A DNA stretch of 63,821 nt, filler included, from Chrysochromulina tobinii (lineage: Eukaryota), in NCBI GenBank assembly GCA_001275005.1. It is 6 parts of 6 records of this genome, joined end to end, with 100 filler letters (N's around TTAATTAATTAA, not from the genome) between each part and the next. Parts side by side here need not be neighbours in the genome. Positions count along the whole stretch, not along the records: positions 1 to 9,698 come from JWZX01000559.1; 5 more parts are not named here. One strand, written 5' to 3'. Below the pieces are notes generated by a model. That model ran no database searches, had not been told where the DNA came from, and worked only from the letters and a program-made list of their open reading frames with translations. Below are positions 3,074 to 55,769 of the stretch, piece by piece. Each line of letters opens with the position of its first letter. Position 1 is the first letter of the stretch. A program made the translations under genes and the position numbers.

Positions 3074-3237
3074 GACGGAGTTTAGGTTCTTAGAATGGAA
3101 AAACTCCGAGAGAACTCGGCGAGAGAAGAAAAAAGTCTCTTTAGGTACCGAAGTTTGATGTCTGTTCTCCTATGTACCTGTGCACTGAAAGAACACTTTT
3201 ACGATTTTCGCGGCTCGGCGCTTCCGATCGAGTGCCG

Positions 3238-6200
3238 ATGCGGGCCGCCTCGGTTCTCACCATGCTCCTGATCCAGCACGCACACGGAGCTGCCGTGACG
3301 ACGCCGCGAGTCCGTCGCGTTCCCACCTTGACCCGTGCAGAGGTCGCTCCGCCGCTCACCTCGAAGCGTGCGCCCGAGATCGTGCTCGCGACACTCGACG
3401 GAGGGCAGTTCAATAGCACCGCCTCGCTGAGCCGACCGGTGCTCTTCAACGTGTACGATCCAACGTCCGGCTTCAGCACGTGCCTCTGGCAGTGCAACCA
3501 GTCCATCGACGAGCTCATCAAACGCGCGGGGCCCAAGGGCTCGCCACTCGGGACTGCGCCGAGCTCCAACTTGGTCTTCTTGTCTTACGACGCAGCGGCC
3601 ACCGACGACGTGGCGGCGCTCTCGGCGCTCATCAACGGCCGGCTCGACGCTCTCAACGTCACCGATCCGGCCATGCGTGCCGAGTGGGCTGCCCGGCTAT
3701 TCTTCGCGACCGCGCCGGCGACGGACGCGGCACCGCTCGCTGCGACACTCTCGGCTTGGCCGACGACGACCGACGAGATCGTCCTCTCCAACGGCACGCT
3801 CAACACGACGCTTCCGCGGCTCGACCCACGCTACGATTGGATTGGCTGGGCGTTCGACCCGTCGCAGCTCGGCGGGCCGCTCCCGCTTGCCTACCTGGGC
3901 GATGGGTGTGTCGATCGGGCGCTCAACACGACGCTGCCGAACCTGGCGGGCCTAGTCGCTCTGGTCTTCAACGAGACGTCGTATGGTGCGGGGCACACGC
4001 GACCAGATGCATGCTGATTGCATGCTGATTGCATGCTGATTGCATGCTGATTGCGTCCCTCATCAGGTGCGGGGCACACGACGTGCTCGTACTTTAGGAT
4101 GGTGGAGACGGCCATGGCGACCAACGCGTCCGCCCTCATCGTCGTCGCCTCGCCCGGCCTGCCACCCATCGACATGAACTGTGAAGGTGCGGCACAGTGC
4201 AACAACGTCAACGTCGGCTTGCCTGCGACGATGGTCAGTGCTACTGCCGGTCAGACGTTGTACGACGCGATCAACGCGACGGCGGCGACGGGGTCGGCCG
4301 CCTATGTCACCTTCACGACCGCGGTCTCGCGCGGCAGGAACGCGGGCATCTCGGCCGCCGGAGATTGGATCCAGATTTGGGGAGGGTCGGGGGCAGGCGC
4401 GTCCAGCCCGGCCCTCGACCTCGCTGCTGATTGCATTCCGATTGCATTCCGATTGCATGCTGATTGCATGCTGATTGCATGCTGATTGCATGCTGATTGC
4501 ATGCTGATTGCATGCTGATTGAATGCTGATTGCCTCCCTCATCAGGTGCGACTAGCCCGGCTGGCGGTGTGGACGGCAACCCAGGTGACCCCAGCTGCCT
4601 TCTGTACCCGCGGATGAGTTTCATTGCCTGGGCGGGGCGCTTTGAGATCTATCGGCAAGCGCTCGCCGCCAATGTGGCCGCGCGCCCGGCAGGCTCGATG
4701 TCTCTCACGCTCTTTCGGAACGAAAGCATTCGCCCCTTATTAGGCGACTGCTATGCGTCTCCGCCGTGGGGATGCGGACCGAGCGTACAGCTGCAGGTGC
4801 CGCCGCTGCCCCATCAAGGGAGCCTGCAGCTCGACCTCGCGCTCGGATGCGCGGGCGACACCGACGTGACGTGTGAGCAGTGGGACTACGTGGTGCAGCT
4901 GCGCGCCTGCTGCCTGCCTTCCGGCCTGAGCGCCATCCTGAGCGCTGCTAGTGCGGCTGGCGTCGAAGGTCCGCAGTGCGACGCACAGAGCGGCAGCGAG
5001 ATTGGGCGATGGATCACCTCGTTCTCACGCGGTGTCGGGCGCTGGCACACGGACGTGACGGCGCTCGCACCGGTGCTCACCGGCCGCTGGTGCAACTTCA
5101 CCATGTACACGGTGCCGTGGGAGGGTAACCAGGGATTGATACCGTGGATTGCGACTCTCTCGCTCGTGGTGCTGACGGTGCCGGCTGCGCCGCCGCCGCC
5201 GCCGATGCCGCCAATGCCGCCGATGCTCGCCCTGCCGATACTCGCCCCCGCCACCAGCGCCACCGCCGCCACCGCCCCCGCCACCATCGCCACCGCCCCC
5301 ACCGCCACCATCGCCACCGCTCCCATCGCCTCTACCGCCGTCTTTTCCCCCATCCCCACCGCCACGTCCCTCGCCTCCACGTCCACAGCCGGTGCGACTC
5401 AGGGCACGCCCGTCGTGTATCAGCCGTGGGGCGCCGTGAGCTCAAATCTGGGCGGCATCGAGAGTGTGTTCCAATGGATCTTCTTCAACCAGTCCTACAA
5501 CGCACTCTTCCCGCCCTTTGCCTTCTCCGTGCCCAACGGTAGCAAGGTGCTGCTCATGGCGACGATCACTGGGCATGGGAACGATAACAATGGCTGCGGC
5601 GAGTTCTGCGCGACAGAACATCGCTTCTCGGTCAACGCGCAGCCGGCGCACGTCAAGCGCCAGCTGCTGCCCATCACGGACCCGCAGCTGGGTTGTGCCG
5701 ACGAGGTCGACACGGGCGTGACGCCGAATGAGTACGGCACGTGGCTCTACGGTCGCAACGGCTGGTGCAACGGACGGGAGGTGGTGCCGTGGGTCATCGA
5801 CCTGAGCGACGACATAGGGCTCACAGGTGAGGCGGCGTTGATTGCCCCTGATGGCCTGCCTTGCATGCAAGTGCTCACCACAGCGCTGGGCTCACAGGTG
5901 AGGCGGTCATCACCTACGAGGGCCTCTGGTGCCCCAATGCCAGCTCCTGTGTGCAGCCGAACCCGGGCCCTCCGGACGAGTGGTCACAGGTACGTTGATT
6001 GCCCCTGATGACCTGCCTTGCATGCAAGTGCTCACCACAGCGCTGGCCCTCCGAACGAGTGGTCACAGGCTATGCCGGTCATGATGCTCAGCGTCTACTT
6101 GATCGTGACGCCGCCGGCGGCTCCACCCGCGCCTTCCTCGCCCGCGCTGCCGCTCGCCGTCATCCTCTCGGCGAGCCTCGGTGGTGCTCTTGGGCTTGCT

Positions 6201-6419
6201 CTGCTCACCGCCCTGCTGGCCCTCTACTGGCACCGCACGCGGCGCGCCAAAAAGGCGAGCGCCGCGGGGCCCCGCGAGGCACTGCTACCGGTGGAGGCGC
6301 TTCTGACGGCGCCGGTCGTCGAGGATTATCAGCTTGCCGAGGACGGCCCCGGCGGCCGTGGCTTCCCGGGCCGCAAGGTGTCGCTCGAGCGATTGAGCAG
6401 CTTTGATGAGGTGGACTGA
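3238..6419 (+). CDS. Membrane-anchored PA-domain + peptide-N-glycosidase F-like protein; exons 3238-3985, 4067-4396, 4546-5826, 5898-5989, 6069-6419
   Basis: Signal-peptide-like MRAASVLTMLLIQHAHG. PA-like CSYFRMVETAMATNASALIVV...LPATMVS. PNGase F-like motifs CEQWDY, EIGRWITSFSR, ITGHGNDNNGCGEFC and PNEYGTWLYGRNGWCNG. C-terminal hydrophobic helix. Four introns join the ORF pieces in frame. Confidence 0.85.
3986..4066 (+). other. GT-AG intron (81 nt) with target-site duplication and (CTGATTGCATG)n filler
   Basis: GGTGCGGGGCACACG at 3985-3999 and 4066-4080; ends CTGATTGCGTCCCTCATCAG; splicing gives SYGAGHTTCSYF. Confidence 0.9.
4397..4545 (+). other. GC-AG intron (149 nt) with degenerate target-site duplication and (CTGATTGCATG)n filler
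   Basis: Intron start GCGCGTCCAGCCCGGC versus next exon GTGCGACTAGCCCGGC; ends CTGATTGCCTCCCTCATCAG; splicing gives WGGSGAGATSPAGG. Confidence 0.8.
5827..5897 (+). other. GT-AG intron (71 nt): 52-nt core between 19-nt direct repeats
   Basis: GGGCTCACAGGTGAGGCGG at 5817-5835 and 5888-5906; splicing gives IGLTGEAVITYEG. Confidence 0.9.
5990..6068 (+). other. GT-AG intron (79 nt): the same 52-nt core between 25-nt direct repeats
   Basis: GGCCCTCCGRACGAGTGGTCACAGG at 5966-5990 and 6045-6069; splicing gives PPDEWSQAMPVMML. Confidence 0.9.
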
Positions 6420-6924
6420 CAAGTTTCGAGGGAGCTTGATCTACACGAGATGTGTGCGCAAGTGTGTGGCGTCGGCGACGTGGTGTGTGCGCCGAGTTTT
6501 ACTTGTGTGAAACTCGTCTCGTGAGACGTGAACACACGACGACGACTCCACATACGGCATATGTACACCTCCACACAGAGACCCTGGTGCAGACTCACAC
6601 CCGACCCTGCGATGCCTAATGAAAGTGGTCGTCGTGCGTGTGCCGTGTCCGGGAGTCGTCGTGTCAGACAGGGACACATAGTTAACGTCCTGCAGACAGA
6701 AACCCTGTAGGGGACCCTTCGGTATTGATATTTCGTCATGTCTTTCTGAAACAAAAGACGACAAAAGACAGGTCCAGAATGTGGTAGGATCGTAGGAACA
6801 TCAAAGGCCCATCAAAGGTTAGGACCCATCAAAGTAGGTTAGGACCCTTAACCCATGGAGCACGGTGCCCTGGCTGCGCATCACTGACACTGTCCTACTT
6901 AGTTTCCTTGTATACTACGGCTGA

Positions 6925-7960: not shown

Positions 7961-9698
7961 ATGGACGCGAGTGGCAGCGCGCGCGCCGAGGCCGTCGACG
8001 CGATGTTCGACGCGCTCCGTCGCGGTGACGAGGCCAAGGCCGTGGGCTTCATCGACAGGGTGACAGGAGCGGCCCACCTCGGCCTTTGCCTGCTTCGTGC
8101 ATGTGAGACTGGTCACCCTACGTGCACGAGGCTGCTGATCGCTGCCCACGCCGCCGTCGACCATGCAGACAGCAACGGCCTCACGCCTCTGCTCGCCGCC
8201 TGCATCAAAGGCGACGGCGGCTGCGTGCAGCTGCTGCTCGCCGCCCACGCCGCCGTCGACCAGGCAGACAGCAACGGCAAGACGCCTCTGATCGCCGCCT
8301 GCCTCAAAGGCGACGGCGACTGCACGCAGCTGCTGCTCGCCGCCCACGCTGTCGTCGACCAGGCAGACAGCAACGGCATCACGCCTCTGATCTTCGCATG
8401 CATCAAAGGCCGCGGCGTCTGCGTGCAGCTGCTGCTCGCCGCCCACGCCGCCGTCGACAAGGCAGGCAGCAACGGCCTCACGCCTCTGATGCAAGCCTGC
8501 TATGTAGGCCACGGCGACTGCGTGCAGCTGCTGCTCGCCGCCCACGCCGCCGTCGACCAGGCAACCAGCGACGGAGCCACGCCTCTGATCTACGCATGCA
8601 TCGAAGGCCGCAGGGACTGCGCGCAGCTGCTGCTCACCGCCCACGCCACCGTCGACCAGGCAGACCGCGACGGCGGCACGCCTCTGATCTACGCCTGTAT
8701 TTATGACCACGGCGACTGCGTGCGGCTGCTGCTCGCCGCCCACGCCGCCGTCGACCAGGCAGGCCGCAACGGCCGCACGCCTCTGAACCACGCCAGCCAT
8801 ATAGGCCACGGCGACATAGTCAAGCTGCTCGTGCATGCAGGCGCACGCACCGACTTGCGATGCGGTGCGGGCACAGCCCTCGATGTCGCAGAGGCCCGAG
8901 GCCACACCGCCATCGCAAGATTCCTGCGCAGCAGGGGCCGCGCACCTGCGACGATCGCTGCGGTCGCTCCGGTGTCGAGTGCGGAGCATGCGGCAGCCGA
9001 GCGGGCAGCCGAGCTTGCCGCTGCGGCTCTGCTGGCTGAGGAGGAGGCCGAGGCTGCGCACACGAAGAAAGCCAAAGCCAAGCAGGCAGGGGCGAGCGAG
9101 GCGAGAGCGTCGGTAGCGAGTGCGTCAGCGGCCGCGAGTGGCAGCGCCGAGGCGGTCGACGCGATGGTCGACGCGCTCCGTCGCGGCGACGAGGCCAAGG
9201 CCGTGGGCTTCATCGACAGGGTGACAGGAGCGGCCCACCTCGGCCTTTGCCTGATTCGTGCATGTGAGACTGGTCACCCTACGTGCACGAGGCTGCTGAT
9301 CGCTGCCCACGCCGCCGTCGACCATGCAGACAGCGACGGCGGCACGCCTCTGATCTACGCATGCATCAAAGGCCGCGGGGCCTGCGCGCAGCTGCTGCTC
9401 GCCGCCCACGCCGCCGTCGACCAGGCAGACCGCGACGGCGGCACACCTCTGCACGCCGCCTGCATCAAAGGCGACGGCGACATAGTCAAGCTGCTCGTGC
9501 ATGCTGGCGCACGCACCGACTTGCGATTCGCTGCGGGCACAGCCCTCGATCTCGCAGAGGCCCACGGCCACACCGTCATCGCAACATTCCTGCGCAGCAG
9601 GGGCCGCGCGCCTGCGACGATCGCTGCGGTCGCTCCGGTGTCGAGTGCGGAGCGTGCGGCAGCCGAGCGGGCAGCCGAGCTTGCCGCTGCGGCTCTGC
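7961..9698 (+). CDS. Ankyrin-repeat protein, paralogue of 2-3073, with an internally duplicated cassette (7 + 2 TPL repeats); 3'-partial at the gap
   Basis: ORF 7946..9754 with ATG at 7961. Same N-cap (GDEAKAVGFID...AAHLGLC), repeats and C-cap (GTALDVAEARGHT) as the minus-strand gene; the cassette restarts at about 9135. Confidence 0.9.
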
Positions 9699-9798: not shown

Positions 9799-9839
9799 TA
9801 GGGTTAGGGGTCAAAAGAGGAGAATGAGAGAAGAAATGA

Positions 9840-10023
9840 CCCTAACCCTAACCCTAACCCTAACCCTAACCCTAACCCTAACCCTACCCTAACCCTAACC
9901 CTAACCCTAAGAACCCTAACCCTAACCCTAAGAACCCTAACCCTAACCCTAAGAACCCGAACCCGAACCCGAACCCCGAACCCGAACCCCGAACCCGAAC
10001 CCGAACCCGAACCCGAACCCTAA
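9840..10023 (+). repeat. Telomere-type (CCCTAA)n tract degrading into CCCTAAGAA and CCCGAA variants
   Basis: Read directly; lies about 40 nt from a contig start. Confidence 0.9.
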
Positions 10024-20134: not shown

Positions 20135-22776
20135 GCCCGCAGGGGTACGGCGCGGGCGGAAGCGTGCCGCCGCGGCACGACGAGTCGGATGGGTTTCGTC
20201 ACGACCAGTCGGATGGGTTTCGTCACGACGAGTCGAATGGGTTTCGTCACGACGAGTCGAATGGGATTCGTCACGACGAGTCGGGAGCGGCGGTTGGATG
20301 GGGTTCGTCAGCCGTTCTCGAGACGCTCGAGGGCTCCGACTCTCCCAAATATGGGTCGAATGGCTTCGTCAAGAACGGTCGTTCCACTGGTCGTCACGCG
20401 ACGTTCCATCCGCCACCGCCCCTTGCGCCTCTACCGCACTTCACCGCTCCTCAGCACCTTGGCGCCGCCGGCGACGGCGGCGGCGGCGGCGGCGGCAGCA
20501 TGATCGGTGGCGGGAGCGAAGGCAGCTCCCGCGAGCGCCGTCCTGGTCACCACCATCACCACCATCACCACCATCGGCACCACGAACACCGCGAGTCACG
20601 TCTCACACGTGAGGAGAAGGAGGCGCTCGCCTCCCTCCAGTGGACCCTCCACCGCGCCGCCTCGGGTTTCGTCATGGCGGAGCTCGAGCGCAATCTCGGC
20701 CATAATCTCGGCCATAATCTCGGCCATAATCTCGGCACGTCGGCCTCGATTCCCTTCTCTGGAGTCGACCTCGATGACGGCCGCTCGTCGCCACGTCATC
20801 GCTTCGATGATGACGGCCGCCATCGCTTCGATGGTGATGGCCGTTCGTCGCCGCGCTCCGAGAGCGCCTTCTCGTGCGCCTTCTCGGAAGGTTCCGCCTC
20901 CGCCTACTCGTACACCGGACGCTCCTTTACGGGCACCGACTCGTCGTACTCTCGCGCTGGCCTCATCAGCTCACCGCACGGCTCCGTCTCCGCGTACTCC
21001 GAGTCGCAGCGCTCGAACACGACGAACACGACGGCCACCACGGTGAGGGAGGCCCTCGCCTCCCTGAGTGCCTCCCTGAGTGCCTCTCTGATCACCTCTC
21101 TGAGTGCATGCTGATTGCCTCCCTCATCAGGCTCGCCTCCCTGATCACCTCCCTGAGTGCATGCTGATTGCCTCCCTCATCAGGTGAGGGAGGCCCTCGC
21201 CTCGCTCCGGCAGCTCGCCCAGCAACTCCCTCCCGGATTCGCCGAGTTCGGACTCATCGAGCAGCCGTTACGTCGCTCCGCCGCCGTCCCCGGCGTGAGC
21301 GGTGGCGCCACCCCCACCGGCGTCTCCGGCGTGAGCGGTGGCGCCACCCCCATCGGCGTGGGCGGCGGCGCCACCTTAGGCGGCACGCCATCGGGCGTCT
21401 CGCGCGGCGCGTCCCCTGCCCTCTCATTCACGCCGAGCCTCAGTGGGTCCGCCTCCCCCCCCGTCCTCATGCCCAGTACGGCGCGACGGTTCGACGCATC
21501 GCCGCCCTCAGAGGGCGCCGTCGCGGGCGCCGCCGCGGGCGCCGCCGCGAGCGCCACCGCATCCCCCTTCGCGTCGGGAACGGGCGCCGTCCCGGGCGCC
21601 GCGCCTCCGAGGGGCTCCCCCGAAGGCGCCGTCGTGGGCACTGGCGCCGCCCCGGGCGCCGCGCCTCCGAGGGGCTCCCCCGAAGGCGCCGTCGTGGGCA
21701 CTGGCGCCGTCCCGGGCGCCGCGCCTCCGAGGGGCTCCCCCGAAGGCGCCGTCGTGGGCGCGGGTGCCGTCGCGGGCGTCGTACCGGGCGCCGCTGCCCT
21801 CGCGCCGACGCCGAGCCCGGGCGCCGTGAAGGACGAGGCCGACGGTGCTCAACACGGCGCTCTGAGCGCGCGATACCACTCACCACCGGTGCTGCCCAAG
21901 ACGGCGCTGCCCAAGACGGCGCCGCATGGCGTCGACGGCGGTTACGGCGGCAGCGGCGGCAGCGGCGGCGGCGGTGGCTTCGGCGGCTTCGGCGGCAGCG
22001 GCGTCGATGGGGAGGCGACCGCCGCTGACGCCGCCGCGGGCGCCACCGCGGGCATCGCCGCGGGCATTGCCGGCGAGTCTGCCAGTAGGTCGGCTGGCTC
22101 GCAGTGCAGCGCTCGGTACAGCGCTCGGTGCAAGATGGCCCGAGCAGCGGCGGCTGCGAAGCTCTCCGAAGAAGCCGCCGCCGAGCTGGGCGCGAGCGCC
22201 GCACCGAGCGCCGGCGCCCCTACCTCTACACGGCCCGTGACCGAGGTACGCTCGCGCCCGCCACGCGGCCCTGCGGCACAGGTCGCGGCTGTCCAGTCCG
22301 CAGAGCTCGATGCGGCGCAGATCCTCTCGACCTTTCCCGCGCTCGCCGGCGCGGCTGCCGAGTTGGGCGTCGAGATGGGCGTCGCACCGCCGATGTTCAG
22401 CACGAAGCACAGCGCCCACAACAGCGCCCACAACAGCGCCCACAACAGCGCCCACAACAGCGCCCACAAGTCGGCGAGCGCCGAGCGGCTGCGGACCAGG
22501 CAAGCGCTCACAACAGCGCCCGCTCCAGGGGGCGAGATTCAGGGCGAGATTCAGGGCGAGATCCGCCGAGCGCTGTTTCCGGACCAGTCCTCTTACGCGG
22601 ACAAGGCCTCTTATGCGGACAAGTCCTCTTATGCGGACAAGTCCTCTCGCGAGGGGACCAAGGTGGAGCCAGCACTGGATCCAGATGCAGATGGCCTTTC
22701 GCCGAGCATCGGCCGCTCGCCGGCATGGGACACGCCGTGCACGCAGCAGGAACAGGACATCGAGCTGGAGGTGTGA
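18088..22776 (+). CDS. Hypothetical low-complexity single-pass membrane protein, 5'-partial; introns 18211 (or GC at 18220)-18501 and 21043-21183
   Basis: ORFs 18376..21114 and 21157..22776 are joined by a duplication-flanked intron. Hydrophobic WMLTLGGFVLLLIALCVLLVCC; many short in-frame tandem repeats. Confidence 0.6.
18211..18501 (+). other. Intron filled with CTGATTGCG(AT) and CGTCCCTCATCAC repeats
   Basis: CAG|GTGCTC...CCCTCCACAG|AGT joins WLTWTQ to SRVQLG in phase 0; the donor could instead be GC at 18220. Confidence 0.7.
21043..21183 (+). other. GT-AG intron (141 nt) with 20-nt target-site duplication and two tandem acceptor modules
   Basis: GTGAGGGAGGCCCTCGCCTC starts both the intron and the next exon; CTGATTGCCTCCCTCATCAG ends at 21130 and at 21183. 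Confidence 0.85.
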
Positions 22777-35900: not shown

Positions 35901-38900
35901 CGCACGTGGTGCTGCTGCGCCGCTGGCGACGCTCGAAGAGCTTCAGGCCAACGGTCAGGCGGCTGCAAGGTACCGCCTTCCCTGGCCCGGACGACGAAAT
36001 GGCGCGGATGCTTCCCGAAGGCGTCGAGTTCACTTCGGTGGAGAAGCTCACCGTCGGGAGCGAAACGTCCACGCCGCCTCCCTCGCCCCCGTCGCATGTG
36101 GTGGCGCCGCAGCCGGCCGAGATTGATATCTCGCCCCCCCCGAAGGGCGGGATTGATATCTCGCCCCCCCCCGAAGGGCGCACAGAGCCGCCGCGCCCGC
36201 CCCTCGAGTTCCAGCCTCAATCTGCTCAGCCATTTGAGAGGTTCGCCGAAGGGATCGTCGACGCGCCAAGCCATCCAGAACGCCGACGGGCCCACAGGCC
36301 TTGTGACAGACGACGAGCTGCACGCAGCCCCGTCAGTGCCTCCGATGCGCAAGCAGCTCTTCGTGATGCTGCTCAAGCGGTGGACCTGCCTCAAGCGCAA
36401 CAAGAAGGGCTTCTTCACGCAGCAGATCCTTCCTGTGGGGCTCGTCGCCGTGATCTTGCTCATCCTCACTTTGGAAGACCCGCGCGTCGGCCCGCCACTC
36501 CGCATGCATGCATCCATCTACCGGCGCACGCGCTGGGGGGGCGAGCAGCCGGAGCCGCCCACGCTCCACGTGGCCAACCGCGCGCGCGACACTGAGCTCT
36601 TTCGGCACTACTCGACGTACTCCCTCGACTGGCAAGAAATTGGCGCGGCCGATTCGTACAACCTGAGCCAGTACCTGCTCGATACGTACAACGATCACCA
36701 GAGTCGCGCCACTCGCCTCGGCGGCGCGTTCGCGGGCGATATGGTCCACTTCAACTTGTACTTTGGAGGCGGCGGGTTGGAGGGCGTGCTCCTGGGCAAC
36801 GGCAACTCGTCGGCCGTAGATCCTGAGGACCTCGCTGCCCTTTCGGGCGGCGTCGCGGTCGCGTTGCTCACGTGCTCGCGCTGGCAGCCGGGCGGTGTCG
36901 GTTTGGTCGGTTGGACCCCGGGCATCGTCGCGCAAGCGCTCCTTCCCAGCCTCAACCTGAGCGCCTCCACTGAAGCACTCGTGATGTCGCTCGTGCGGGG
37001 CGCCAACGGCACCCTCGCTGGCCTCAACGTGTCAGCCTCGGGGCTCGCTGGCCTGGCGGCGGGTGCGCTTGCAGGCTCCATCTACCTGTCCAATAGCAGC
37101 GTATCGAATAGCAGCAGTGGCTTCAACAGCAGCGTCGTCGTGGGCACGGCTCCGACCAATCTGATCACCAATCTGATCACGGACGCGCTCGCTACGGTGA
37201 TCGGCCCCGCTGTCAGCGCCGGCCTCGCCCTCGGCGCTGCGGTCGTCAACAACGCCTCGGTCGCTGCCGTCGGTGCGGGCGTCGGGACTGGGCCAGCGGG
37301 AGATCTGATCTGCGCGGGGCTCGGCCAGGTCAGTGTGCTTGACGCCGAACTGAGCGCTGCAGGCGTCCCTGTCGCCGCCCGCGCCGACGGCTTTGCGACC
37401 GCGAATCCAGCCGACTCCCTCGGCAGCGCACTGGTCAATGGGCAGCCTTTGCGTGAGGCGGCGCTTGAGCTGCTCGAGGACAGCGCTGGGCGCGCCGCGA
37501 CTGTGGGGGTCGGCTTCATCTTCGACTCGATCACGTACGACCCGTGGCTGCCGCAGCTGCGCGCCGCGCTCAACCCCATCACGCCCCTACTAGTCGCTCT
37601 CTCATGCAGCACCTACCCGTGCTCGCTAGTTCGGCCAGCCAACGAGCAGGCGCTCACACTCGCACTGCGCGCGGCGCTCGTGGTGGTGGGCGGCTGGACT
37701 TCAGCCGAGGCAAGTAGCCTGATCACCGTGGATCGCATACGACGCTCGCTCCCGTACATCCGCGTCTTCAACAACCTCGTCACAGAGCTCGAGGGGGTTC
37801 GTCGGGGCAACGAGGTGCGACTGCACTCGATCGAGAACTTCCCGCTCCCCCTCGCCGACCTCGCCGAGCTTGTCGCGCTGATCGCCGACGTCAACCCGAC
37901 GGGCCCGTTCACGGCGCTCCGCCCCGTCCTCGACGGCTGGGCTGCCGACGGCGCTCCCCTCACCATCCCGACCACCGCAGAGGCCGCGGCCGGCGTGGCG
38001 GCCGACGCGGCGGGCCAGAACTCCACATTAGGCGACCGTGAACAGCTCAACCTGCGCCAGCTCACGCTTCGACTCGGGATGGTCTGGCTTGGCCCTGCGA
38101 GCCTCAAGGTCAACCACTTGGAGCTGACCGCCGTTGGCACCTTTCAGGCTTCTTCCTCGCTATCCTCGCCGCCGTCGCCACCGCCGCCGCCGCCGCCCGG
38201 CCCAATGCGCCTGACCATCGGCCACCTGGAGCTCTCGGACAGCGTGATCGCCTATGTGAATCTGAGCTATGCGGACACTCGCACCTCGGGCTCCGCCGCG
38301 GGCTTCACGTACGACGCGCGTGTCGTGCCGAGCATCTACACGGCACCCTGGCTCAATGTCTCTCTTCCAGTGCAGCTCACGGTGCTGCACAACACCTCGT
38401 CGGCGCACGCGATGGCCGTCTTCCTCGGCGAGGCGAGCCAGTCGGCGTGGTACGAGGCACACGCAGCGATGCACCCGCCGCCACCGCCGCATTTGGGTGT
38501 GGTTGGCGACGCCCGTGCGCCGATCGGCCCAGTCAAGTACGAGGTCTTCAATGCGCCGCTGCCGCTCACGCGCCGCGCAGCCCTTGAGGTATGGCGGACC
38601 CTGATTGCGACTGATTGCGACTGATTGCGACTGATTGCGACTGATTGCGACTGATTGCGACTGATTGCGACTGATCTGATTGCGACTGATTGCGACTGAT
38701 TGCACCTCCGTCCGCCCTTGAAGTACGGCGGACCCTGGCCTTGCTCTCAAGCCAGTGCATGCGAGCGCTCACCGCGGCGCCCTCTCCCCACAGGTACGGC
38801 TGATCCTGGCCTTGCTCTCGTCGATCTTCATGCTCGTGCCCTTTTGTTACATCCCGGCATCGGCGGCCGTCTTCGTCGTGATGGAGCGCATCTCCAAGTC

Positions 38901-49238: not shown

Positions 49239-49687
49239 AGATCAACAAAGATAAACGGGCCGGTGGTCGGAGTTCTTTTAATAGCGCCGAGTTGGGACGA
49301 GTCGGTGAGGACGATCTGCCTTGGTCTCAGTTCGATTCAACCTAAATCGGGTCACACAATTCTAGGTNNNNNNNNNNNNNNNNNNNNNNNNNNNNNNNNN
49401 NNNNNNNNNNNTTAATTAATTAANNNNNNNNNNNNNNNNNNNNNNNNNNNNNNNNNNNNNNNNNNNNGCGCGTCTGAATGCATGCAAAAAACAATGAAAT
49501 GCATATGTATGCACACGCATGCATACGAATGCACATGAATGCGTATGTTAAAAAACAACACCACTTTCGTTAAAAAACAACACTCCACCCATTAATTCGC
49601 GAGGGCGCGAGCGCGCCGCGTCACCAGTACCGGGCGAGGGCTGCGCGCCCGCGACGGCGCCCAGCGCAATAGATATCCGACGCGTCG

Positions 49688-52370
49688 TGATGGCTCACCG
49701 AGGGGGCTGCCGAGAGGCGGCCAGCGCCTCGCTCGCGCGCAACGCGAGCCGACCGCCCGCTACGAGCGAATCAGAGGCTGAATGCCAGTGATGGCTCATC
49801 AACCTGATCACGATTGCATCATGATTACGTCATGATTGCTCGCCGAGGGGGCTGCCGAGAGGCGGTCAGCGCCTCGCTCGCGCGCCATGCGCGCCGACCG
49901 CCCGCTACGAACGCATCAGAGGCTGAGTGCCAGCGATTGCTCATCAACTCGATCATGATTGCATCACGATTACATCCGGATTGCTCACCGAGGGACTGCC
50001 GAGAGGCGGCCTGCGCCTCGCTCGCCCGCTGTGAGCGCATACTGCCCGCTAACCAGCGAATCAGAGGCTGAGTGCCTTTTATGGCTCATCAATAGCTCAC
50101 CAACCTGATGTCATGATTGCATCATGATCACGTCATGATGGCTCACCGAGGGGGCTGCCGAGGGGCAACCAGCGCCTCTCTCACGTATCTCTCACGCGCA
50201 ACGCGAGCCGACCGCCCGCTACGAGTGAATCAGAGGCTGAGTGCTAGTGATGGCTCATCAACCTGAACATGACTGCATCACGGTTACGGCGTGATTGCTC
50301 ACCGAGAGGCGGCCAGCGCTTGATCACGCGATACGTATGCCGCCCGCCCGCTAGGCTGAGTGCCAGTGATTGCTCATCAACTCGATCATGATTGCATCAC
50401 GATTACATCGTGATTGCTCACCGAGGAGGCTGCCGAGAGGCGGCCAGCGCTTCACTCGCGCGCCACGCGCGCCGACCGACTTCTCACAAGCGAACCAGAG
50501 GCTGAGTGCCAGCGATTGCTCATCAACCTGATCATGATGGCATCATGATTACATCGTGATTGCCCACCGAGGGCCTCCGAAGGGCTGCCAAGAGGCGGCC
50601 CGCGCCTCGCTCGCTAGCCACGCGCGCCGACCGCCCCCTAACGAGCGCTTCGGAGGCTGAGTGCCAGTGGTGGTTCATCAGCCCGATCATGATGGCACCA
50701 TGATTACATCGTGGTTGCTCACCGAAGGGCCGCCGAGAGGCGGCCCGCACATGATCACGCGCCACGAGCGCCGCCCGCCCGCTACGAATGCATCAGAGGC
50801 TGAGCGCCGTTGATGGCTCATAAAACCGGATTATGATGGCATCATGATTACGTCTCGATTTCTCACCGAGGGGGCTGCCGAGAGGCGGCCTGCGCCTCGC
50901 TCGCTCGCTGTCAGCTACTGTAGCTGTCAGCATACTGCTAGCATACTGCCCGCTAACGAGCAACTCGGGGGGCAGGGTTCCAATGAAGGCTCATCAACCT
51001 GATCATGATGGCACCATGATCACATCGCGATTTCTCACCGCGAAGGGCTGTGCCGAGACGAGCACCAAGCCTCGCTCACGCGACACCACAAGCGCCGTCC
51101 GCCTGCTTTCCTGATAACGATCGCATCGGAGGCTGAGGGCCAGTGATGGCTCATCAACCTGATCATGATTCCGTCACGATCACCTCGTGATTGCTCACCG
51201 AAGGGGGCGCCAGTGATGGCTCATCGGCCTGATCATGAATTCATGATGGCATCATGGTCACGTCATGATTGCTCGCCGAGGGGGCCGCCGAGAGGCGGCC
51301 AGCACCTCGCTCGCTCCATCGCCACGCGCTCCGGCCGCCATCTACGAGCGCATCAGAGGCTGAGTGCCCCTGATGGCTCATCAACCTGATCGTGATGGCA
51401 TCATGATTACGCCTCGATCGCTCACCGAGGGGGCTCGCGAGAGGCGGAACGCGCCTCGCTCGCTCGCTCGCTCGCAGTGTACTCGCAGTGAGCGCGCACG
51501 CTAACGAGCGCATAAGAGGCTGAGTGCCAGTGATGGCTCATCAACCTGATCGTGATTGCATCATGATTACGTCATGATTGCTCACCGAGGGACTGCCGTA
51601 GGACTGCCGAGAGGCGGCCAGCGCCTCGCTCGCGCGCTACGCGCGCCGACCGCCAGCTACGAGCGCATAAGAGGCTGAGTGCCCCTGATGGCTCACCAAC
51701 CTGATCGTGATTGCATCATGATTGCATCATGATTACATCGTGAGTGCTCACCGAGGGGTCTGGCGAGAGGCGGCTTGCGCTTCGCTCGCGCGCCACGCGC
51801 GACGACCGCCAGCTACGAGCGCATCAGAGGCTGAGTGCCCCTGATGCCTAATCAACCTGATCGTGATTACCTCGTGATTGCTCTTTGCTCACTGAAGGGG
51901 CCGCCGAGAGGCGGCCCGCGCTTCGCTCGCGCGCCACGCGCGCCGCCCGCCGGTCACGAGCGCATAAGAGGTTGAGGGCCAGTGATGGCTCATCAACCTG
52001 TAATCATGATTGCATCATGATTACATCATGATCACCTCGTGAGTACCTCGTGAGTGCTCACCAAGAGGGCTGCCGAGAGGCGCCCCCCCACGCTTCGCTC
52101 GCGGGCACGCGCCGCGCGCCGACCGCCAGTTAACAACTGCAACACCGGCTGAACGCTTGTGATGTGGCACCTCATCATCCTAATCATGATTGCATCATGA
52201 TTGCTCATCGAGAGGGGCTGCCGAGAGGCGGCCCACGCTTCACTCGCGCGAGGCACGCGCGCCTACCCCCCCCCTTACGAGCGAATCAGAGGCTGCGTGC
52301 CCCCGATGACTCATCAAACCGATCATGATTGCATTATGATTACACCGTGATTGCTCACCGAGGGGGCTGT
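49688..52370 (+). repeat. Satellite: about 18-19 diverged copies of a ~145-nt unit
   Basis: Unit GCTCACCGAGGGGGCTGCCGAGAGGCGGCCAGCGCCTCGCTCGCGCGCCACGCG...CAGAGGCTGAGTGCCAGTGATGGCTCATCAACCTGATCATGATTGCATCATGATTAC recurs at about 49694, 49839, 49984 and onwards. Confidence 0.92.
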
Positions 52371-55203: not shown

Positions 55204-55769
55204 TTGTATGCGTCGATAGCTTCCCACTGTGATCGGCTCATCGAGTGCGCCAACGTGTACTCTGCCTTGGCAAGCTCCTCCTCTTTGGCCTTGCGCTCCT
55301 TGCGCACGTCGGCGTCGCGCCGCCACGACGATCGCGAGCTCGGAGGGCGAGGTCATCTTGTTGCTAGACACTCAAGGGTCTCTCCACAGTCCGGACGAAA
55401 CGCGCCGTTTTGGACCCCGCATGCAATTGGGGGAATGGGGGGGGGAGGGGGGGGGGGGGGGGGGNNNNNNNNNNNNNNNNNNNNNNNNNNNNNNNNNNNN
55501 NNNNNNNNTTAATTAATTAANNNNNNNNNNNNNNNNNNNNNNNNNNNNNNNNNNNNNNNNNNNNTAACGGCAACGGCCGGCCTCCCACCACCTCTCTCAG
55601 GAGGTTATAATAATGCTAAACTTACGATATGACTTCACCAACCATCAATAAGGATTCGAGCCGAAATGACCTCACTTTTACCCTACCCGGAACCCGCCCA
55701 CGGGCGAACGACGCGACGCCGCCGCCGTGCCCGCGAAGGGGCCACCTCGACTCCGGGTCCGGCAGTAGT

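Follow-up and report, generated by a model that had tools for sequence, protein, structure and literature searches.

Introners and other described sources of new introns

The origin of new spliceosomal introns is an old open question, and the best current answer to it is given by introners, most of which, as far as they have been classified, are DNA transposons that leave short target duplications of fixed length. Introners of the MITE type are known from Micromonas, Aureococcus, Symbiodinium and Polarella, and for the introner-like elements of fungi the reverse splicing of excised introns has been proposed.

Here, a stretch of 63,821 nt (filler included) joined from six parts of the Chrysochromulina tobinii assembly GCA_001275005.1, referred to as the window, was analysed, in which one gene carries two copies of a short element, the first within a spliced intron and the second within a predicted one, each between its own direct repeat (Table 1). 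Introners have been described from a Chrysochromulina sp. (TARA MAG, family 5; Gozashti et al. 2022, PNAS, PMC9860276), with an example element of 70 nt and a duplication of 4 bp. In the published description of that family, the elements are short, lack terminal inverted repeats, bring their own 5' splice site and take the 3' site from the duplication, which is also the layout of copy 2 and of the loci grouped with it below (class A). However, compared by description, the duplication of 4 bp stands against variable repeats of 12-46 nt in the family of the window, which also shows truncated ends and junction microhomology, and whose same core is found in two further layouts (classes B and C), unlike family 5 as described.

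The introner-like elements of Polarella glacialis (classes 13 and 14; bioRxiv 10.1101/2020.10.14.339549) are described as DNA elements with short fixed duplications, and their AGGH duplication can provide all four nucleotides of the splice sites, much like in copy 1, where AG/GT (the slash marks the exon junction throughout) lies within the repeat. According to that description, one class can form introns in more than one register. Copy 1 differs in its repeat, which has 19 nt and belongs to a family in which repeat length depends on the locus. The neointrons of Daphnia pulex, in turn, have been attributed to the repair of staggered double-strand breaks and segregate as presence/absence alleles in populations (PMC4202315). 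As in them, the new intron carries at its opposite end a copy of the end of the adjacent exon, but the repeats in Daphnia measure 4-12 bp, and the recurrence of one insert at many loci (at least 114 here) is not part of what that source describes for the neointrons. Literature searches on haptophyte and Chrysochromulina introns, on introner microhomology and on intron gain by target-primed reverse transcription (TPRT) turned up no such family, although the supplements and datasets of the introner papers may list one.

Two element copies in a PNGase F-like gene

Table 1. Features of the two element copies, their host gene and a third family member in the window
Feature	Position	Strand	Description
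Host gene	3172..6419	+	PNGase F-like protein with a hydrophobic stretch at the C-terminus; from Pfam, spliced model and RNA joints
Host gene exons	to 3985, 4067-4396, 4546-5826, 5898-5989, 6069-6419	+	Spliced model open for 964 aa
Copy 1 target, upstream	5817..5835	+	19 nt, GGGCTCACAGGTGAGGCGG; exon end 5826 (..TCACAG); donor GTGAGG at 5827 inside the repeat
Intron 1	5827..5897	+	71 nt, GT..AG; both splice sites from the duplicated target; spliced (RNA contigs)
Element copy 1	5836..5887	+	52 nt, first bases CGTTGATT; without the family's initial three bases GTA; core at 5858-5878
Predicted branch-point motif, copy 1 core	5874..5878	+	CTCAC; putative branch point A5877, 20 nt before the intron end
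Copy 1 target, downstream	5888..5906	+	19 nt; acceptor AG 5896-5897; exon restarts at 5898
Copy 2 target, upstream, exonic	5966..5989	+	24 nt, GGCCCTCCGRACGAGTGGTCACAG
Element copy 2	5990..6044	+	55 nt, GTACGTTGATTGCCCC...CACAGCGCT; own donor; core at 6015-6035
Intron 2, predicted	5990..6068	+	79 nt, GT..AG; missing as a block from L079 and L091
Predicted branch-point motif, copy 2 core	6031..6035	+	CTCAC; putative branch point A6034, 34 nt before the intron end
Copy 2 target, downstream, intronic	6045..6068	+	24 nt; supplies acceptor AG 6067-6068
Third, diverged family member	38723..38793	+	71-nt intron-like unit; read by eye

A repeat search returns a 54-nt pair at 5836-5889 and 5993-6046 (98% identical, with G/A at 5854/6011 as the sole difference), in which the 52-nt copies at 5836-5887 and 5993-6044 differ at one base and start 157 nt apart. 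A degenerate version of the 52-mer finds only these two places within the window and has no match in 100 dinucleotide shuffles. The repeat around copy 1 is exact, and that around copy 2 has one mismatch (A at 6053, G at 5974) and reaches 25 nt when the next G is included. This bears out the first-pass annotation of this DNA, which had described the same 52-nt element as present twice with one mismatch, between different direct repeats of 19 and 25 nt that each contain TCACAG/G. At the 5' end the copies part ways, copy 1 being preceded by GCGG where copy 2 has GTA, and over 60 nt copy 2 matches the element of another locus (L012/L099/L125) at 100% identity. The repeat search finds no terminal inverted repeats at the element ends, only an internal palindrome (CTTGCATGCAAG); folding of both introns and of the element, on both strands, gives no RNA structure signal (z-scores from -0.03 to 1.07), and Rfam assigns no family at E <=1 to the element within 5600-6300, where its only match is a chance-level snoRNA outside the element (E 0.96).

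The protein of the host gene matches PF09113 (1e-21) and PF09112 (2e-7). The 71-nt intron around copy 1 is spliced, since RNA contigs of two RNA runs of one study join 5816 to 5888, skipping exactly 71 nt (X14, depth 52.9, shorter side 146 nt; X15, depth 20.6, shorter side 68 nt), and this joint is absent in the DNA run X13. Its removal preserves the 964-aa frame. RNA contigs also bridge two further introns of this gene that lie between repeats, from 3984 to 4066 (X14, X16) and from 4398 to 4548 (X14); retention of either intron brings in a premature stop. Removal of the 79-nt intron of copy 2 from RNA is predicted: one X14 contig reads the exon from 5888 into intron 2, up to 6033, and the joint from 5989 to 6069 is not listed in X14-X19, the downstream exon being without RNA-contig cover in X14, X17 and X18. 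The candidate branch points of both cores come from reading the sequence against the yUnAy consensus.

The first-pass annotation had proposed a search for empty alleles, and these have been found for copy 2. Two environmental DNA contigs from other populations (L079 and L091), with ~98% identity to window positions 5300-6500, retain copy 1 but lack exactly 79 nt, i.e., copy 2 plus one repeat, and their empty site reads ...GTGGTCACAG followed directly by GCTATGCC, in short CACAG/GCTATG. Therefore, GTA is part of the element. The annotation had correctly noted CAGGTA upstream against CAGGCTA downstream, but its reading, in which the loss of one C turned a GC donor into GT, is refuted by the empty site, and GTACGTTGATTGCC begins the element at many loci. 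Likewise, its statement that the duplicated target supplies both splice sites holds for copy 1 and fails for copy 2, which has its own donor (GTACG) and takes only the AG acceptor from the target. The presence/absence at copy 2 is likely a recent intron gain, a polarity favoured by parsimony and by the complete identity of copy 2 to the L012 element; in principle, a precise loss between the 24-nt repeats could also have produced the empty allele.

A dispersed family with locus-specific repeats

The 21-nt core GCCTTGCATGCAAGTGCTCAC occurs in at least 131 metagenome stretches, with at least 147 instances at no fewer than 114 distinct loci, as counted by exact 21-mer matches (diverged copies, or copies truncated within the core, fall outside the count) and drawn from several related populations. 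In the DNA run X13, the summed contig depth is 35,000-140,000 over the element and ~103-130 over its flanks, a sum that is not a copy number. The family shares GCCTTGCATGCAAGTGCTCAC-CACRGCGC, with a consensus start of GTACGTTGATTGCC. The diverged member at 38723..38793 joins three pieces: a 26-nt copy of the start of its downstream exon (38723-38748, with 2 mismatches to 38794-38819), the core variant GTGCATGCGAGCGCTCACCGCGGCGCC, and CTCTCCCCACAG. Viral contigs hold no match to the core, and as to a longer parent element in the window, the only matches are of 11-13 nt, to a 145-156-nt satellite at 49683-52200.

Among the matches listed, 63 of 84 judged single-core loci have direct repeats of 12-46 nt around the element that are specific to the locus (best gapless repeat score of 12 or more), and 21 have none that reaches this score; a control that paired left flanks with right flanks from other loci (the 84 permuted twice) gave only 8 such values. 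The longest exact flank repeat in the same matches has a median of 14 nt, versus 7 nt in the mismatched-flank control, and shorter repeats of 6-11 nt were read by eye at further loci. The period modulo 3 is 20/21/22 at the 63 loci (matches listed), and the element boundaries vary continuously, from 0 to 36 nt to the left of the core and from 0 to 44 nt to the right. The proposal of a discrete multi-copy sequence that forms introns together with a duplicated target thus stands, on the strength of the 131 or more stretches and the locus-specific repeats.

Could the second copy in the window have arisen by a purely local tandem duplication or gene conversion, with no mobility at all? The distance of 157 nt and the 98% identity of the copies would suit such an event, but it is refuted by the core at no fewer than 114 distinct loci, by the L012 element, which matches copy 2 in full over 60 nt, and by the empty allele, which drops only copy 2 and its own repeat; the flank repeats and 5' ends of the two copies also differ. 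The first-pass annotation had named a 52-mer confined to this place as the case against itself, and that case is excluded by the many loci of the core. Two other models were also compared with the family. Intron birth by tandem duplication of an AGGT-bearing exon segment (the Rogers model) was rejected, as a foreign insert of 52-55 nt lies between the repeats and recurs elsewhere, and full-length insertion with no duplication, as in fungal introner-like elements, does not describe a family with duplications at 63 of 84 loci (matches listed).

The element is found in three layouts, each of which restores the old exon junction. In class A, which includes copy 2, the element brings the donor GTACG at its start and a repeat ending in AG is the acceptor; in class B, the pyrimidine tract and CACAG at its end belong to the element, and a repeat starting with GT is the donor; and in class C, which includes copy 1, both splice sites lie within the repeat. 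The 63 loci (again among the matches listed) divide into 23 of class A, 15 of class B, 11 of class C and 14 with no GT/GC..AG in register. The 23 class A copies begin precisely on the donor G, and the 15 of class B finish precisely on the acceptor G. Longer repeats go with shorter inserts in class A (r = -0.65), where the intron measures 77.4 +/- 6.0 nt. At the 49 spliceable loci, the restored junction has C (32) or A (13) at -3, A at -2 (42), G at -1 (45), G at +1 (42) and T at +2 (28), with mixed bases from -4 to -6. The target preference is MAG/G(T), and the longer TCACAGG that had been suggested from the two copies in the window does not hold at these loci. Since excision of the insert restores open frames on both strands (54 versus 44 of 63), a codon-model classifier (right for 68 of 70 held-out chunks) was used to assign the strand, and it places 40 of the 45 spliceable open-frame loci in coding sense.

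Proposed templated copying and its alternatives

Both junctions of the element show microhomology. At the right one it averages 2.76 nt, versus 0.47 nt in the control, and reaches 3 nt or more in 57% of cases, versus 4.6% (n=21); at the left one, taken at the core edge, the mean is 3.3 nt versus 0.71 nt, and 7 of 10 cases reach at least 3 nt, versus 6.7%. Templated copy-and-paste fits the variable repeats, the variable ends and the microhomology. We see even chances that new copies are templated by an existing one, probably by its RNA, with microhomology priming the synthesis into a nicked or broken exon and no transposase taking part; a transposase is disfavoured because repeat length and element ends vary and the junctions carry microhomology. 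Variable repeat length, truncated ends and microhomology at both junctions would then be the footprint of target-primed templated synthesis, the core would supply the branch point (CTCAC), and selection would retain only those insertions with GT and AG in register and with a spacing suited to the spliceosome. The 14 of 63 loci with no splice sites in register and the 21 of 84 whose flank repeats score below 12 (matches listed) count against this explanation.

Regarding the template, we lean towards RNA. A more specific and tentative version holds that the excised spliceosomal introns are themselves the mobile agent, their RNA being reverse-transcribed into nicked exons by an enzyme of the host or of a LINE. 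The 3' tail of the intron RNA would possibly be trimmed, priming would take place through a few complementary bases, and the target duplication would complete whichever splice site the truncated copy misses. The closest known parallel to such target-primed synthesis is offered by tailless retropseudogenes and 5'-truncated LINE-mediated retrocopies, with variable duplications, internal RNA priming through a few complementary bases and no poly-A. Here, by contrast, an excised spliceosomal intron would be the template and another intron the outcome. What is expected of non-LTR or SINE-like TPRT is found in part: variable duplication, 5' truncation and a microhomologous priming junction are present, and a small-RNA-derived head and a constant 3' tail, A-rich or LINE-derived, are not. 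No A-rich or other constant 3' tail was seen, the 3' ends being variable across loci, and none of the 22 ORFs of the window encodes a reverse transcriptase, LINE or transposase.

A DNA template appears rather unlikely to us, though it accounts for much of the same evidence. As in templated insertions by polymerase-theta or MMBIR, a 3' end that is broken or stalled within the exon would switch through microhomology onto a different intron locus, or onto a nearby copy, copy part of it and return upstream of its departure point, so that 12-46 nt are duplicated, with selection for the spliceable products. The microhomology at both junction types and the variable repeat lengths and element ends agree with this, as does L111, where two extra bases (AG) precede GTACG as if copied from past an intron end, in the exon of a donor locus. 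So do the tandem [element + repeat] arrays (e.g., L042, L097) and the several contigs with 2-4 copies within 1-6 kb; in the window the two copies, 157 nt apart, differ at 1 of 18 signature positions, a closeness reached by only 4% of random pairs. However, pairs of copies from one contig do not resemble each other significantly more than random pairs do (p ~0.14, 20 pairs), and copy 1 cannot be the source of copy 2 (GCGG against GTA). Break repair, moreover, is not known as a usual source of hundreds of near-identical ~55-nt copies at unlinked loci, and the exact starts of the 23 class A copies and the exact ends of the 15 class B copies would each need selection. With a DNA donor locus, selection together with CAG/GT microhomology could bring about these exact ends at GT and AG.

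The exact ends are also what reverse splicing would predict, in which an excised intron enters another mRNA at a protosplice site and is then reverse-transcribed and recombined into the gene; the termini of class A and B elements are intron termini, the restored junction is MAG/GT and the coding-sense bias agrees. Nevertheless, reverse splicing inserts the whole intron with no duplication, whereas here the majority of copies lack part of one end and 63 of 84 loci have duplications of 12-46 nt (matches listed), which leaves this route barely probable and marginally behind a classical non-autonomous DNA transposon (a MITE-type introner), itself very unlikely. A transposase-moved element that recruits splice sites from its target-site duplication would explain the many copies at intron positions, the flank duplications and that recruitment, and the published Chrysochromulina sp. 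family 5 is described as carrying its 5' splice site and co-opting the 3' one (PMC9860276). Still, the repeats here have no fixed length at 12-46 nt, against 3-9 bp for the introner duplications given in that source (PMC9860276), and neither the fixed short duplication nor the terminal inverted repeats and fixed ends of a TIR DNA transposon are found, the element ends being unfixed and the junctions microhomologous.

The family of the window shows what is expected of introners, with near-identical copies at intron positions of unrelated genes, removal from RNA (copy 1) and presence/absence (copy 2). It is of the introner kind, with a distinct footprint of long variable duplications, truncated ends, microhomology at both junctions and three interchangeable routes from one core to the splice sites. 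For such an insertion it provides a natural pair of filled and empty alleles and RNA evidence of clean splicing. In practice, gene-finding and alignment programs are misled by introns of ~70-80 nt that sit between exon copies, since the splice could be placed anywhere within the repeat. The mechanism, i.e., an RNA or a DNA template, and an insertion bias or selection for protosplice sites, is directly testable in a culturable organism. Should the excised introns be the mobile agent, introns would breed introns without any element-encoded protein.

Two copies of one element in a PNGase F-like gene

A repeat search of the window bore out what the first-pass annotation had described, a duplicated 52-nt string lying between two different direct repeats (see table). 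The match shared by copies 1 and 2 extends to 54 nt with one base different and, allowing up to three mismatches, the string has no further match in the 63.8-kb window and none in 100 shuffles. The source is a GC-rich eukaryote (window GC content 55-72%), with 10-11-nt tandem repeats inside many of the window introns. The host gene product is PNGase F-like (PF09113, 1e-21; PF09112, 2e-7), and removal of introns 1 and 2, which contain copies 1 and 2, and of the gene's two second-family introns leaves a single open frame of 964 codons with its end at 6419, while keeping either intron 1 or intron 2 gives a premature stop.

Positions, along the window, of the element copies and of other repeated features
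Feature	Position	Remark
Element copy 1	5836-5887	52-nt string
Element copy 2	5993-6044	52-nt string
Repeat GGGCTCACAGGTGAGGCGG around copy 1	5817-5835 and 5888-5906	exact
Repeat GGCCCTCCGRACGAGTGGTCACAG around copy 2	5966-5989 and 6045-6068	one mismatch
Intron 1	5827-5897	
Intron 2	5990-6068	
Second intron family	3986-4066	host gene; RNA joint
Second intron family	4397-4545	host gene; RNA joint
Second intron family	21043-21183	
Motif GTA(T/C)GGCGGACCCTG, three times in 38580-38819	38589, 38723, 38794	
Satellite, sub-repeats ATCATGATTGC	49683-52200	unit 145-156 nt
13-mer TGCCCCTGATGGC shared by satellite and copy 1	51365 and 51680	in satellite
Interstitial telomere-like (CCCTAA)n array	9839-10023	~185 nt; CCCGAA variants at end
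99-nt ankyrin-repeat arrays	944-2916 and 8131-9495	mutual reverse complements
N runs	55465-55564	assembly gap

In contigs assembled from RNA, 5816 is joined to 5888, with 71 nt skipped between GT and AG and a positional ambiguity of 19 nt, which is the length of the repeat. The joint is present in the RNA runs X14 (depth 52.9, shorter side 146 nt; recovered again at 96% likeness) and X15 (depth 20.6, shorter side 68 nt), both from a single study, and absent from the DNA run X13, which covers the locus; therefore, intron 1 is spliced. Two more repeat-flanked introns of the gene are joined in RNA, one of 81 nt (X14 and X16, representing two studies) and one of 149 nt (X14). Among the RNA joints listed there is none for intron 2, whose splicing is a prediction, and an X14 contig spans 5888-6033, from the exon into this intron.

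Contigs L079 and L091, from two other metagenome records and with ~98% identity to window 5300-6500, carry copy 1 with a gap of exactly 79 nt further on, where the site of copy 2 reads ...CCGGACGAGTGGTCACAG|GCTATGCC. Such a site represents the locus before the insertion (or after a deletion); by comparison with it, the element is defined as GTACG...GCGCT together with a duplication of 24 nt, which refutes the earlier proposal that one C had been lost from a CAGGCTA target. The 79-nt difference could also stem from a precise loss between the repeats, gain of copy 2 being the parsimonious reading. Another locus in the metagenomes, L012/L099/L125, has an element that matches copy 2 without any difference over 60 nt.

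A dispersed family and its splice-site layouts

Scanning metagenomes with the 21-nt core common to the family (GCCTTGCATGCAAGTGCTCAC) found it in at least 131 stretches and, among the matches listed, 147 core instances correspond to 114 distinct loci, 108 of them with at least 100 nt on each side and 84 of these without a second core close by. Among these matches, 63 of the 84 loci have a best gapless repeat between left and right flanks that scores at least 12, with lengths of 12-46 nt. In a control where each left flank was compared with the right flank of a different locus, just 8 values got to 12, so each duplication is specific to its locus and does not belong to the element. By eye, several of the 21 low-scoring loci have 6-11-nt repeats at predicted splice sites. 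Clustering merged copy 2 into copy 1, so copy 2 stands outside the 63 loci and was assigned to its class by hand.

There are three layouts by which element and repeat supply the splice sites. In class A (23 loci) the donor is the element start, GTACGTTGATTGCC... (GCACG in 4), and the acceptor is the AG ending the repeated exon end; in class B (15 loci) the GT opening the repeated exon start is the donor and the element end, ...CCTTCCCCACAG, the acceptor; in class C (11 loci) both lie within the repeat. In 14 of the 63 loci, GT/GC..AG is not in register. As the intron equals the insert plus one repeat copy in all three classes, the old junction is restored, and it reads C/A-A-G|G-T, a general protosplice site in place of the TCACAGG preference initially suggested. 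The view that the duplicated target provides both splice sites holds for copy 1 (class C, with the element's first GTA missing) and fails for copy 2 (class A, with its own donor); overall, the first reading was partly right, and the feature is real. Intron lengths are spread evenly modulo 3 (20/21/22), and 40 of the 45 spliceable loci having an open frame are in coding sense according to a codon-model strand classifier (68 of 70 held-out chunks right).

Several single contigs contain 2-4 core copies inside ~1-6 kb (L006-L009, L072-L074, L113-L115, L046-L047, L061-L062 and L118-L119), and the family appears to be clustered in certain genes, as with the window's two copies. Tandem [element + flank repeat] arrays with a period of 63-88 nt (L042, L097, L016, L003, L118) look as if a whole new intron had been re-duplicated via its repeats.

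Other repeats in the window

Members of the second intron family have TGATTGC(C/G)TCCCTCATCAG at their end, are filled with 11-nt repeats of the TGCATGCTGAT type and show the same footprint, their 5' end being an exact copy (15 nt and 20-21 nt; GTGCGGGGCACACG.., GTGAGGGAGGCCCTCGCCTC) of the downstream exon start; in the 149-nt member the repeat is diverged and the donor is GC. For the 7-mer TGATTGC, the window has 56 matches on the + strand and 2 on the - strand, and these concentrate in the satellite and in the introns of genes on the + strand. At 38580-38819, an insert of ten CTGATTGCGA units and a diverged core-family insert stand in series before one exon start, as if two insertions had hit this site one after the other. 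The ankyrin-repeat arrays flank the PNGase-like gene and may represent an inverted pair of ankyrin genes.

Possible origin of the copies and relation to introners

A transposase with fixed ends would not account for the pattern, given that the repeats cover a wide range of lengths, that the boundary of the element falls 0-36 nt to the left and 0-44 nt to the right of the core, and that terminal inverted repeats are absent. Both junctions show microhomology to what would have come next in the element: on the right, the mean is 2.76 nt vs 0.47 in the control, with 57% vs 4.6% reaching 3 nt (n=21); on the left, at the core edge, it is 3.3 nt vs 0.71, with 7/10 vs 6.7% reaching 3 nt. In class A, where introns measure 77.4 +/- 6.0 nt, repeat and insert lengths are anticorrelated (r = -0.65), which we read as selection on how far the acceptor lies from the predicted branch point, the CTCAC of the core. 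Variable repeats, variable ends, microhomology and spacing fit a copy-and-paste process that is templated, primed by microhomology and located at a nicked or broken site, after which selection for clean splicing would act on the insertions.

As for the template, it may be RNA, with a reverse transcriptase copying the transcript of the intron. We lean towards this because many copies have the donor G as their precise start or the acceptor G as their precise end, and because one small sequence has spread to such a large number of unlinked sites. Most of these facts could also be explained by DNA-templated repair, and one locus (L111) has two bases from outside the intron, just ahead of its start, which is in line with such repair; no candidate enzyme was seen among 22 window ORFs. 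That these introns spread through their own excised RNA is, on balance, a tentative proposal, to which we give somewhat less than even chances.

Introners are an established kind of intron source, whose duplications measure 3-9 bp in the cases described by Gozashti et al. 2022 (PMC9860276), including a Chrysochromulina sp. family with its own 5' site and a 3' site co-opted from a 4-bp duplication. The sources named by Gozashti et al. 2025 (PMC12130899) are TIR, LTR, non-LTR, helitron and crypton elements, plus unknown mechanisms, and Daphnia neointrons are described as having exon-end repeats of 4-12 bp from staggered breaks (PMC4202315). A literature search of main texts found no family described as combining truncated ends and microhomology at the junctions with duplications that are both long and variable. 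The site of copy 2 offers an informative pair of filled and empty alleles for a family of the introner kind.
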